Assembly (NCBI GenBank): GCA_905178155.1
Contig: CAJINV010000002.1
Location: 2,760,226 to 2,824,225 of the forward strand
DNA from: Amoebophrya sp. A120
Taxonomy: Eukaryota > Protista > Dinoflagellata
Direction of reading: 5' to 3'
Length of the DNA: 64,000 nt
A model generated the notes under the pieces. It saw nothing but the letters and a program-made list of their open reading frames with translations, did no database searches and was not told where the DNA came from. A program made the translations under genes and the position numbers. Every line of letters begins with the position of its first letter. The first letter of the stretch is position 1. Below, one piece after another: positions 27 to 62,733 of the stretch.

Positions 27-3000
27 ATGCCGCTCCAGCGCCTGCGGAGGCTTGCCTCCCCAGCGATAATGGACAATGGCAATGTCGGTGCGGTTGTTTT
101 AGCATCACAAATTCATGTAACAGTTGAGAATGTAACGTTTGAGAACGCCATAGTCGGCGGTGCGCAGAACATGCAGGGAGGTGGAGCTGCGCCAACCGCC
201 GCTAATGTGACAACAGGAGCGCCTTCCTCTGGAAACAGCGCGAATTACCAGGGTTTCCCGCAGTTCGCATCCGCTGCAAGGAAATCCGAAGCGCCCTCAT
301 CGTCGATTCTGCGGCAAAAAGCAGTCGACTCTACTGCGTCACCGGATGGTGCACGGACGACAAAGGCGCGAAGCCCGAGTGGAAAAAAGAAAGAGAAGGA
401 CGGATCGTCGAAAGCGGACCCGAGCAAGCGCGTTTCCTTTGATGAGTCGAATAACGAGGAATTTTCCCCCGCTTCCTCCGTTTACAACCGAACGAGGAAC
501 GCCCGAGCCGGACGGTTTGGCACCGGGGGAGACATTTTGTCGCCTGAGAAGAATAAACTACAGCAACAGATGAGAGGATCATTTTCTGAAAGCGGTGCTG
601 CTGATGGGGCAGCTTCTAGTACTACAACCGGGACGTCGAATATGGAGAGAAAAAAGTTTGTCACAGTCACTAACTTGCAGGCTTTGCATTACAAATTTTC
701 TCAGCATCACAAACTTTCCTTGTATTGCAGAAACACTAGGGAAATCCCTAATGAAGTTTGGCTGTGATGCATTTTTACGCATGACAAACAATTTTGTATT
801 GCAAAAATGCGCATGAGTGATCGTGACGAACTTTTTTTCTTTGATATCGAACAATCAGCACCTGTTTCACAGCAACCCGTCCAAGATCTCCATTAACGCC
901 AGACGGGTATTATCAAGTGCAAATATCCCTGGATGTCTGGAAAGATGCAAGGTTTGTCGTGCTAGTCCGGCACGGCTCTGAACTTTGTATATTGCGTGGC
1001 CACAAGCAGCCTCTCTTGACTGTCATGCAAAAATAAGGCAGTTTCTCATGCGGAATACGCAGCACAGAAGTTGAAGCACGAAAAAACTTGTCATGCTTGG
1101 CGGCGCTTTACAGTGCGCTTGCTCTTGGCTGACTTGCATCACAACTTCCCAGACCCAGTCATAGTTGCATTTGATAGGTATTGTTTGCGTGGCTGAAAAG
1201 AACGCGACGGCACGCCAGGCGAACGGAAGAGATCGCGCTTGCGCAGAAGAGAATAACCAAACTGGAGCGGAAACAGCAACAATTACGCGAGAAAAACGCC
1301 GGAACTTCTTCTAGTATTACATCGGCTGCGAAGGGAGCAGGAGGTGCTGGGGGACCAGAGGAAAATGAGACTGCCAACTACAAGCCGTCAAAATTTAAGC
1401 CAGCAAAGCGGCGGAAGCTCCTTCGCATCGACCGGTATCTGGATGATTGGGAGGAGTTGGACAGTATCCACTGCAAATATGTATCTATGGGTCTGGAAAC
1501 TTGTGATGCTGAATTGTGGATGACTGAAATACTTCCCCATGCAGCCAAGCATGACAAGTTTGCCGCACACTTTCTCATGCGCAGTCGGCACGAGAAACTG
1601 CGCTTTTGTATGACAAAAGACGGCATCTTTTTGCTAGTCATGCAACACAGATTTTACAGGAATGGAGGACTACCATTACAAGTTCCATGCTTCCAGACCC
1701 AGACATATTTACAGTCGATAGACAGACTCGCCATGGCGGATCCAGTGAAGCTGATCAAGTCGCATTTGGAACGAGTCACGTTATCCTGAGTAAAATTGTC
1801 CCCACATCGGAGTCAAGAAGGGAAATCTGCTACACAAATCAACTCGCTTTGGTTGTTTCGCATGACAAGTCTGCCCTCGTACTGTGATCCTGTTTAGCTT
1901 TAGTTCAGAAGCATCACAGATCTAGCATATCGTGCTGGTTCTAACATCACAACTTCCAAAACACGACTAGAAAATGCTTCTCATGGTGCTCCGCATGAGA
2001 ACCTTTTCTGGCATGCAGATTTCCATGACAGCTCTTGGGTGGGGGCCTTTTTCCTCAAAATACACGTACAAGTTAAATCACGGGGAGGACCCGCGGTTCG
2101 ACTTGCTGGGACACCACGACGCGGCCAAACGGGTGTTGAATGAGCATAACCAGATGGAGTTTTATTCTGTCGACATATCGTACGAAAAAAGTGTTTCACT
2201 GTAAGGATTTTGCAAGTTTTGCATCACAAGTTTGTTCTGCATGACAGAGAAAATTTGCCATGCGAGTTTCCTTAAGGAAAAGACAGCTAGAAATCCATGG
2301 TCTTGCATGTGGAGAAAGACAAATACTTCTCAGATACATTCTCTGCATTACAAGTTTACAGTGAAGCAGTTTTTTCTTGCGATACGACAGTAACCAACAG
2401 GAGTACGCCGAACACCCGCTGGATAAACCTCGCGTGGGGAGCAAGAAGGACGACGACATAATCAACGAGGCGGAGTTGACAAGAAATTTGGCCCGGATCC
2501 GGCGGGAAAAGGAGAAGAGGGCGAATCAGTCTGATTCCGATGTGGAGTCGGACGAAGAATGGATGAAGCGTGTCAACTGTAAAAATGTCTGGGTCTGGAA
2601 GAATGCCAAACTTGGCATGCAGAATTTCCATGCCCCGTGAGGTCTGGAATGCAGGGCCTAGCATGACAGATTCTGCGAAGTGGTCCCTATCGTGCCTGTC
2701 CTGCATGAGAAACTCCTTCTCATGATGGTGGTCAGAAAAGGGCAACTTTTGGCAATCACGCAAGATAGATTTTTGTGTGATCCACAGGACGCATCACAAG
2801 TTGCATCCTTCCAGACCCAGACAATTTTGCAGTTGATAAAGCGGAGGGAGGAACGAAAATTGAAAAGGCAGAAAGATTTGGAAGAGAAAAACAGAACTGG
2901 GCTTGGCGAAGGTACTGACTTAGTACGATTTCGTCTTGCGTGCGCGTGGGCGTGCTGTTCTTGTCTACATGATGCCTTCTGGATCCTTTTGTACAAGTTC

Positions 3001-60036: not shown

Positions 60037-62733
60037 ATGAAAGCTTGCAAGAACATGGTAAATCGCCTCGGTACAACTACTTCTAAAGTGGTTCTTCGAG
60101 CTGGTGTTGGGGTCGTCGTAATTCTCTTCCATTTGTTGGCCCCCGGTGAAGATCACCTGCTCTTCACTCCGGTCTCCGCTCTGAATCCCTACTGCCCGAC
60201 CTGCGCGCCCTACAACCTCGTGTGGATTGTAGATTACGATGGTACGGGGAAAAAGACGAATGGCACCGCGTGGGTCGACACACGGTTGGACGCAGACAAT
60301 GCCCCCGGCTTATCAAATGCAAAGATGTCTGGGTCTGGAACCTTGTAATGCTGAGCCGTGAATAGTAATTTCTCTGTAATGCACAGCCAAGCATGAGAAA
60401 TATTCGCGCGGCTTAGAAGTGTTGTGCCTTCCGCATGACAAACTGCGTTTGTTCCGTGACAAGTCAGAGGGTCATCTCTTCTTGGACACGCATCACAAAC
60501 TCTTCAGTCATGCCAGACAAGCATGACAAACCTTGCATCCTTCCTGACCCAGAGAAACATATTTGCAATCCATACGGCTTGGGAGATCCCGACATCGACC
60601 CGGAGGAAGCCATATGCAATGCAAAAGCATCGTACTAGTATAAATTGCATTACAAATTTTCTCAGCATGAGAAATAAAATTTGTAATGCGGATTTACCTT
60701 AAGCAAAGGAAAAGTAATGCATATTTGCAATGACTACGAGTGCGATACTTTTGCAGTTCATAAGCCACCCGGTTGTTAAGCGACGAGTGCGTGAAAAGCG
60801 GGTGTCACGCGGTGATGCGGTGGTTGCACCCAGGCGGGGTTTCTTACCATGCGAGGGAACACATGTGGTGGAAGACTGAAGACCCCAACTGGGGAGGCCC
60901 GAAAGAGAGGCTCTATCCCATTTATTCCACGGATGAGACTTGGTTGAACGACTTCGCCCCACCGGGATGGAACACAGGTCTTGAGGACAAGTGGGACAAA
61001 ACCATCGCTCCAGCTATAAAAGAACAAGCGACGAGTGCTTCTAGCACAACTAGTAGCAACAAGAAAACCATCCTCTCGCTTCGCTGCAAGGCCCGGCCCT
61101 GCCTGCTGCGCCACCGAGGGAAAGGGTGGCGGGAGTACTCCGAGACGGGGTTGTGTGGGGAAGAAGGCGAAAAGAAACAGGGGTTCCTGGCGAAACATGC
61201 TGATTGGGGCGGGGATTGCCGTGCGAACGCCTGCTGTAGTGTGAAAAATATAGACACAAACTGGTGGAATCGATTGTATAAAAACGCGTATGAGTGTGAG
61301 GAAAGCAATGGCTCGAATACCGAAGGCTCAAACAGACACCAATTACGTCGCGTGTCGGAAACAGAGTATGTGTCCTCCGACAAGATTACCCAGATCGCCA
61401 CACTATCCACCGCGACATTATATATTGATCTGGGTCTTCCTCTTCACTGGAAAAGTGCAGAAGTTTAGTGTCATGCGGATATTTTTTGTATGGCTGTGGC
61501 CTGCAGCTCCACCTGTAGCTAGGGTACTAGTGCCGTAGCGTCAAAGTCTGGAATGTATTGCAGGGTTGTAGTACGACCTTAGCGTCACAGACACCTTCTG
61601 TGAAAGCTTTGTTGCATTGTGTCCAACGACTGCTCTGCATGAAGAGAAAATGTAATCCGCTCTAGTAAGGGTAAGTAGTAGTTGCCAACGAAAACGAACC
61701 AGCGTGTTGCTATTCGTGCATGACAGATTTTGTTGTAAAGGGCCGGGTGGACGACCATCACAAGATTCCATCCTTATTCCAGACCTGGATCGATATTTGC
61801 ACTGCATACGCCAAAACCTCAACACTTACCCGCGAGGCCGACGTCGAGCTTTCGTCGCCGCGTCGGGCGCCCCCGACAAATTCTGGAAGAAGCGACAACC
61901 GGGAGGAACCGACGGAAGAAAACGACGGAGATGCCTTGCAAGGGGGGAGTGCAGATGGATCATCTTCCGACCTAAAGCAGGACAGCACGAATCCTGCGCA
62001 GTACCGCGACGGCGACCTCGAAAGCGCAGAGACGAGCCGGGACCTCGAGTCCTGCAGTTGCGAGGAGGAAGAGGTAGCGGTGGCAGATGTTGGCACTGTT
62101 CCTGCTTTTTTGGAAACACAAACATCTTCAAAACTACCGCAAATTTCCTCGTCTTCGGCCGGGACGAGTGTAGGTGGACAAGATCATGAGGATCATGTCA
62201 TGGAAGATGAACTTGATCATGTCGTAGTTCCTGCTAGTACTAGAAGAGAACATGGGGCTGACGCCTCATCTACCCCTGGTCGTCCTGCCGGAAACGAAAA
62301 GATCCTCGAAGGGAGCAACAAACGGGCATCCTCGCGAAAAAATTCGTCCTGCCCACCTTGTCGTGGAAGTTTTGCCGAGATTAATGGTACACCACGTCCT
62401 CGCGGTGAAATTCCAGAGCAGCTGCAGTCGGAGTTGCCGAAGAGTGTAGTTGACTTTACGCAGCTTCACGAGGTCGACGTGGACCAAGAAAGAAGAGCGG
62501 ACGGAGATGATGGTGCTGGTGTTGCATCAAAGATGAACGACCCCGACGAGACCGATTCATCTTTGTTTCTCGACGTAGAAGATGACCAGCAAGAGCAGGA
62601 GCTGCACCAGCACTTCAGCAAAGGAACAACAACTTCCGCGGCGCTCCCTGTAGTGGATGATCCAAACAACCACGACAATGCTTCCGAAGCTGGTCAGGAA
62701 GCAGGTGCTGCAGCTTCAACAGTGATGGTTTAG
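60037..62733 (+). CDS. Putative secreted/surface Cys/Trp-rich protein with acidic tail; 3 IR elements
   Basis: Hydrophobic N-terminal segment then YCPTCAP; frame restored across 60311, 60613, 61404 elements. Confidence 0.6.
60311..60574. mobile_element. IR introner family A
   Basis: DR CGGCT/CGGCT. Confidence 0.88.
60613..60762. mobile_element. IR introner family B
   Basis: DR AGCCA/AGCCA. Confidence 0.9.
61404..61808. mobile_element. IR introner, long degenerate family-A-like
   Basis: Decayed TCTGGGTCT/TCCAGACC ends; DR CGCCA at 61396-61400 is separated from TAT by 3 extra bases, second copy at 61809-61813. Confidence 0.65.

Follow-up and report, generated by a model that had tools for sequence, protein, structure and literature searches.

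A 64,000-nucleotide stretch of the genome of Amoebophrya sp. A120 (contig CAJINV010000002.1, positions 2,760,226 to 2,824,225, forward strand; hereafter the window) carries 56 distinct inverted-repeat elements that begin with TAT, end with ATA and are flanked by a 5-bp direct repeat, and contigs that resemble spliced RNA lack such elements together with exactly five flanking nucleotides. We suggest that removal is probably governed by a ruler that measures from the TAT and ATA at the element termini, with two overhangs summing to the 5-bp duplication, and, with a probability of roughly 0.55, that the ruler belongs to a modified U2-type spliceosome that measures a fixed distance from TAT/ATA rather than reading GT and AG. 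The element class has already been published, and the proposed fixed register is a modest refinement of what is known of it.

Inverted ends with a flanking 5-mer were scanned for without demanding TAT or ATA, with 5 shuffles as controls; 60 TAT..ATA pairs were found among 144 hits, compared with 0-1 among the 21-33 hits per shuffle. The set was completed by a relaxed scan, BLAST with known copies and inspection by eye. The 56 distinct elements are 145-405 nt long and lie between 641 and 61808 (Table 1), and a 57th is truncated at the window start, its right end alone being present, at 152. The terminal triplets carry 4 altered letters across 55 elements, and the flanking 5-mer is perfect in 40 of the 56; in 15 others the two copies differ by one letter, and one repeat has decayed (61404, 2/5 letters). 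GT-AG can be reached by sliding the junction only at 911, 8875 and 48185 (3/56). By BLAST, families A (19 plus the weak 61404), B (14), E (6), C (4), D (4) and J (3) were distinguished, with 5 singletons. An original prediction from the sequence alone had named 56 such elements and the same three sliding cases, all of which were recovered; its counts stand for E, C, J and the singletons, and its A of 20 equals the 19 plus 61404, but its B of 15 and D of 3 become 14 and 4. Positions 7530-17320 recur at 17421-27211 with 99.99% identity, a 100-N gap preceding the second copy; this duplication, which holds several genes, is likely an assembly or scaffolding artefact, and elements within the two blocks were counted once. 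The elements share with miniature inverted-repeat transposable elements (MITEs) their short length, terminal inverted repeats (TIRs), a target duplication of constant length, the lack of a coding frame and occurrence in both orientations. They probably belong to the introner class published for Amoebophrya A120 and represent non-autonomous DNA transposons. The elements at 7609 and 7823 stand back to back with one 5-nt repeat common to both (7609-8067), so that the intervening exon would have zero length and removal would be sequential or as a single unit.

Four sequencing runs were aligned to 36700-56600, a region with 24 elements. Two of them (X1 and X2) are assembled contigs from one sample whose RNA nature is guessed, and the figures for joints rest on 15 listed joints among 31. 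Thirteen of the 15 skip an element plus exactly 5 nt (L+5, where L is the element length and the other five letters are flanking), and none of these 13 has GT-AG or GC-AG at any slide. The other two, found in these contigs as well, each skip an ordinary GT-AG intron (190 and 221 nt); the lack of ordinary introns argues that the contigs represent spliced mRNA. In-frame GT..AG pairs lie within 15 nt of 7 of the 13 elements and are unused. The elements are absent from the spliced contigs as L+5 at 13 of 13 listed element joints, which bears out the predicted mode of removal, and the nearby GT-AG sites that had been raised as the competing explanation were passed over. Both orientations are spliced in plus-strand genes (48745 versus 50707, 54328 versus 55813), and elements with a single altered terminal letter are still spliced (36820, TAG; 49533, ACA). 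The raw RNA runs X8 and X9 yielded 4 and 3 aligned reads, with no bearing either way. That the joints reflect element-free DNA alleles or assembly artefacts, the mRNAs not being so spliced, would be consistent with the single sample, the guessed RNA status, the use of contigs rather than reads and the few reads from X8 and X9; we consider it very improbable, as two GT-AG introns are missing from the same contigs, excision alleles would hardly be expected to combine letters of both repeat copies at a single, consistent register, and RNA-seq support for the class has been published.

Where the two copies of a repeat differ, a joint reveals the register k, the number of repeat letters retained from the left copy. 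At the mismatched repeats k is 2-5 (48445), 3-6 (48745), 2-7 (55813) and <=4 (54328), and the slide ranges of all 13 listed joints intersect at k 3-4. If the register is fixed, each cut likely keeps a short and constant distance from its element end, with k 3 or 4, and neither would coincide with an element end; that one register holds for all elements we infer from the 4 junctions. The 5' cut would then lie upstream of TAT by 1-2 nt and the 3' cut downstream of ATA by 4-3 nt, and since the two overhangs sum to 5, the length of the duplication, the exon would be restored; a predicted hairpin may draw the element ends together. If this is true, the spacers together equal the 5-bp duplication in length, and any new insertion, in either orientation, would be spliced seamlessly. 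Such a fixed spacer would account for a transposon that fills exons, at about one copy per kilobase, with proteins unchanged, and this density agrees with the original suggestion that insertions into exons may be nearly harmless; the spacer would also provide an annotation rule for such genomes and make the splicing mechanism testable. No publication fixing the register from mismatched repeats was found in a search that was thin on subscription journals.

Related copies came from a scan with the family A end, which returned at least 140 stretches in one metagenome assembly; 138 loci (L001-L138, 556 kb) were used. They carry the same families, with identity up to 95%, and an exon in them is 83% identical to an A120 protein; none of the 138 overlaps the window exons for an empty-site comparison. 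The duplication is 5 nt long in 203 of 258 pairs (window plus loci). Repeats are mostly perfect (40/56 in the window, 294/353 in the loci) and net removal equals exactly one copy, as would be expected if the duplicated 5-mer were itself read, its two copies being paired or matched. This we regard as improbable, given that the four mismatched repeats named above are spliced at L+5, that mismatches spread over all five positions (9, 4, 5, 8 and 10) with letters unconstrained, that their synonymous share (32/62) is in keeping with one copy being free and the other coding, and that the frame of 61404 is intact with a 2/5 repeat. Because mismatches are tolerated at every position and the letters are unconstrained, the duplication is likely not read by the machinery; the proposal that a terminal hairpin and the duplication are read together keeps its first half, in that the ends matter, and finds no support for its second. 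An apparent constraint at repeat positions 4-5 in the window (13 mismatches at positions 1-3, 2 at 4-5) was not reproduced in the loci, and a synonymous skew by repeat position was gone with better frames (23/21 versus 9/9, p 1.0). Locus L003, where position 3 of the left copy would create a stop, contrary to the register, was set aside as a case of low margin whose gene, judged by eye, lies on the other strand.

The ends themselves are well conserved. In a set of 217 oriented copies, both ends show about 98-99% invariance of TAT and of A11-13, which in part reflects ascertainment; positions 4 and 7 pair at chance level and positions 8-20 pair well. The 4 altered terminal letters in the window compare with 9-14 expected from repeat drift (p 0.001-0.055 depending on the assumption, base-specific mutation rates being left out); a difference between the two ends in mutations at position 1 (0 versus 4) was discarded as the counts are too small. 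TAT is predicted to pair with ATA (>0.5) in 48 of the 56, and the predicted hairpins are strong (mean z -7.5). All 56 elements, of every family, also contain an internal 8-mer, GCAT[GCT]A[CG]A or its complement, with 191 hits (the cut element at the window start included) versus 5.7 in shuffles and a density of 14.4 per kb in elements versus 0.06 between genes. This 8-mer, of which no published description was found in the same thinly covered journal literature, may be a transposase site or a mere hairpin extension, and mobilisation could be by an unseen integrase-like transposase that binds TAT-N7-AAA and the common 8-mer.

As to the machinery, the ordinary introns (n=11; 2 seen in contigs, 9 modelled) are 147-248 nt long, with GTAT donors in 9 and CAG acceptors in all 11. 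Given that 9/11 begin with GTAT, an element cut at k=4 would begin with N-TAT, its donor reading N-UAU, the host GUAU donor minus the G. In the accessible parts of Farhat et al. 2021, Table S4 gives N-T in 9/9 top A120 non-canonical donors and the text places four repeat letters upstream of the element 5' end (PMC7789003). The spliceosome of strains A25 and A120 is nearly complete, U1 not having been found, and strain Kv, which has canonical introns, does possess U1. The GTAT host donors, this distribution of U1 and the precedent of Fritillaria discussed below support a spliceosome. The U at +4 in the ordinary donors also recalls U6 pairing without N6-methyladenosine (m6A), in the portion of PMC13326754 available to us.

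Several points weigh against a spliceosome with this register. A spliceosome is hard to reconcile with a 3' end that has neither AG nor an evident branch motif (in the 11 ordinary introns, too, a branch-point consensus is not evident by eye), with a signal of two-fold symmetry, and with a putative donor for which pairing is predicted. The register is based on 4 junctions, in assembled contigs from one sample of guessed RNA status. At locus L117, where position 4 distinguishes the two repeat copies, the residue in the A120 orthologue is that of the right copy, a single conservative R/K change that weakly favours register 3, and at register 3 the donor loses its resemblance to GUAU. The published donor table, like the four upstream repeat letters, may mirror an aligner preference within the ambiguous repeat, and neither an autonomous copy nor a transposase was found in the window or the 556 kb of loci.

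The same ruler could be read by a separate, non-spliceosomal machine, such as an endonuclease with a ligase or another complex, that recognises paired termini, as has been proposed for Euglena. We take this to be possible and a close competitor, though less probable than a modified spliceosome. The symmetric signal, the orientation independence, the unconstrained letters at the cuts, the strong predicted hairpins and the weak L117 point for register 3 all speak for it, as does the Euglena code N3CDG..CH'GN5-6, likewise fixed-spacer and, in the part of the source available, argued to be a distinct system (PMC12501133). Yet it has no enzyme candidate, the host GTAT donors agree with the start of an element cut at register 4, pairing is dispensable at positions 4-7, single terminal mismatches (36820, 49533) are still spliced, and it is only in strains with such introns that U1 was not found. 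Register 4 would indicate a spliceosome that has shed the donor G and the acceptor AG, and register 3, or circles, a separate machine.

Deletion of L+5 gives open frames of 497 amino acids (6 elements), 1090 (18), 575 (8), 925 (7), 713 (1) and 620 (3), and shifting the deletion by 1 or 2 nt shortens the open stretch in most cases; the shift test is uninformative for 7609 and weak where exons are short. Restoration of the frame was originally claimed for 55 coding elements; 53 of the 56 lie in a confident plus-strand frame, according to a frame model for which this window also served as training data. Element 13647 is non-coding, and the host frame of 36820 and 37146 is unsettled. Around these two, a 190-codon minus-strand frame at 36367-37519 would be the sole minus-strand gene seen. 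The frame test is blind to L+5 versus L+2 or L+8, and in-frame GT..AG pairs lie within 15 nt of 25 of the 56 elements, so that RNA evidence is needed. The public protein P0124 is identical letter for letter to a 689-amino-acid frame from which element 44522 and 5 nt have been removed, and such splicing is thus already present in the gene annotation. Among 326 framed elements of the window and L001-L138, the first letter of the repeat falls on codon position 3 in 144, compared with 88 and 94 for the other two positions, which at register 4 translates into a phase-0 excess.

The long transposase-encoding copies that the original prediction proposed to look for did not appear in the window or the loci. 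Copies of 457-972 nt have internal inserts (up to about 700 nt), with ends kept and no long frames, and a 4.2-kb candidate in L067 proved to be a chance end pair enclosing host exons. At 6024-6995 of L055, a family A copy has a 700-nt insert with an A-run at its end and a flanking duplication of about 19 nt, which by analogy resembles the insertion of a retro-element within an intron. A homologue search for L026 gave no match.

Among the host genes are a 2OG-Fe(II) oxygenase (38371-42309, 8 elements), a CitMHS/SLC13-like transporter (52797-58328, 6 elements) and a CCCH zinc-finger protein (14182-29008, 4 elements). A PLRG1/Prp46-like spliceosomal WD40 gene (32370-34652), whose protein has its best named matches in dinoflagellates (about 48%), is free of elements and has three GT-AG introns, all modelled. 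The internal 8-mer occurs in two of them, and 33987-34136 shows a weak inverted-end pair; these are perhaps decayed elements. No Rfam families were found in 27000-64000.

Table 1. Inverted-repeat elements and control introns in the window.
Feature	Positions	Strand
Cut element, right end only, resembles 3967	1..152	
Element, singleton, perfect 5-bp repeat	641..846	
Element, family A, GT-AG by sliding	911..1176	
Element, family A, in-frame GT..AG alternative at L+2	1465..1720	
Element, family C	1782..2062	
Element, family D	2176..2384	
Element, family A, left end TGT	2571..2838	
Element, family E, left end TAC, repeat mismatch position 1	3228..3477	
Element, family A	3512..3773	
Element, singleton, in-frame GT..AG alternative at L+2	3967..4231	
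Element, family B, divergent	4744..4913	
Element, family C, repeat mismatch position 1	5773..6058	
Element, family B, repeat mismatch position 3	6271..6433	
Element, family A, repeat mismatch position 2	6480..6733	
Element, family A	6934..7196	
Element, family A	7298..7559	
Element, family D, right repeat = left repeat of 7823 element	7609..7817	
Element, singleton, sole window copy with repeat mismatch position 4	7823..8067	
Element, family A	8110..8363	
Element, family B	8459..8608	
Element, family B	8660..8815	
Element, family D, GT-AG possible at register 4	8875..9111	
Element, family E, repeat mismatch position 3	9247..9476	
Element, family D, in-frame GT..AG alternative at L+2	9561..9769	
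Element, singleton (weakly B-like), repeat mismatch position 1	10160..10346	
Element, family A, non-coding, perfect inverted ends 34 nt	13647..13908	
Element, family E	15055..15275	
Element, family A, repeat mismatch position 2	15415..15677	
Element, family A, repeat mismatch position 2	16796..17071	
Second copy of 7530-17320, same elements, uncounted	17421..27211	
Element, family C, repeat mismatch position 1	27009..27287	
Element, family A, left end TAG, joint L+5	36820..37084	
Element, singleton, joint L+5	37146..37453	
Element, family E, repeat mismatch position 3	38570..38798	
Element, family A	39272..39539	
Element, family E	40003..40218	
Element, family A	40302..40568	
Element, family J	40624..40945	
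Element, family C	41176..41467	
Element, family J	41534..41864	
Element, family A	41996..42250	
Element, family B, L+5 removal matches public protein P0124	44522..44678	
Element, family A	47198..47449	
Element, family B, GT-AG by sliding	48185..48335	
Element, family B, repeat mismatch position 2, joint L+5, register 2-5	48445..48590	
Element, family B, reversed copy, repeat mismatch position 3, joint L+5, register 3-6	48745..48889	
Element, family B, right end ACA, joint L+5	49533..49682	
Element, family B, joint L+5	50447..50623	
Element, family B, joint L+5	50707..50863	
Element, family J, joint L+5	52833..53153	
Element, family E, joint L+5	53228..53446	
Element, family B, joint L+5	54117..54268	
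Element, family A, repeat mismatch position 5, joint L+5, register <=4	54328..54592	
Element, family A, repeat mismatch position 2 (right copy would give stop), joint L+5, register 2-7	55813..56074	
Element, family B, joint L+5	56322..56471	
Element, family A	60311..60574	
Element, family B	60613..60762	
Decayed element, weakly family A, repeat 2/5, frame restored at L+5	61404..61808	
Ordinary GT-AG intron (190 nt), absent from same contigs, control	53618..53807	+
Ordinary GT-AG intron (221 nt), absent from same contigs, control	55263..55483	+

In the parts of Farhat et al. 2021 available to us (PMC7789003), A120 introners have an inverted-repeat motif in which TAT is followed by seven variable letters and then three or more A, with 5-bp repeats; that source also gives repeats of 3-5 nt and a border position that is variable or unknown. 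The window elements show the TAT-N7-AAA motif, a border repeat within 3-5 nt and sequence families, together with non-GT-AG removal (in the RNA-like contigs) and a predicted stem-loop. Shared with the published introners are the hairpin, a length of about 240 nt, the many families, RNA-seq-supported non-GT-AG removal and the lack of an internal transposase, and what is available of the paper offers no difference at class level; added here are the repeat of 5 nt, the net cut of L+5 and the register of 3-4 (PMC7789003). The internal 8-mer and the orientation independence have no match in the available text of that paper, figures aside (PMC7789003), and its Figs. 3 and S19-S25 or the datasets of Gozashti et al. 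2025 may contain part of the register and 8-mer findings. The remark in the original prediction that the class is not wholly new is thus confirmed by the TAT end motif, 5-bp repeat and RNA-seq support in Farhat et al. 2021, and its rating of the novelty was too high, that paper already covering the class. Gozashti et al. 2025, as far as available, likewise describe TIR-flanked, intron-generating elements in A120, tens per gene, and report an introner family 38 with TIRs and Copia/Gypsy-like frames (PMC12130899), so that a candidate mobiliser is already in print; long or coding copies such as these were not found here.

Further afield, the non-canonical introns of Fritillaria borealis are also MITE-derived, with TIRs and target-site duplications, and are ascribed to a U2-type spliceosome, but in the portions of the sources available they show a preference for AG-AC/AG-AT ends, in a host with a retained U1 and a duplicated U2AF, whereas the end dinucleotides here come from a random target (PMC11282704, PMC13326754). 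U2-type GT/GC..AG ends are reached in 3/56 window elements by sliding and in 0/13 listed joints. The nonconventional introns of Euglena, as described in the accessible text of PMC12501133 and PMC11282704, share paired terminal triplets, a fixed cut distance, direct repeats, the absence of GT-AG and a proposed MITE origin. Their triplets are CDG/CH'G with spacers of 3 and 5-6, compared with TAT/ATA and 1-2 and 4-3 here, in an unrelated lineage (PMC12501133), and the euglenid code N3CDG..CH'GN5-6|R is not found in the window elements. Excised circles have been demonstrated in Euglena (PMC12501133, PMC11282704, both seen in part). It is conceivable, if somewhat doubtful, that one code, N(1-2)TAT...ATA N(4-3), serves all families and is read from the paired termini by a machine other than the standard spliceosome, which would have evolved in an alveolate independently of Euglena.

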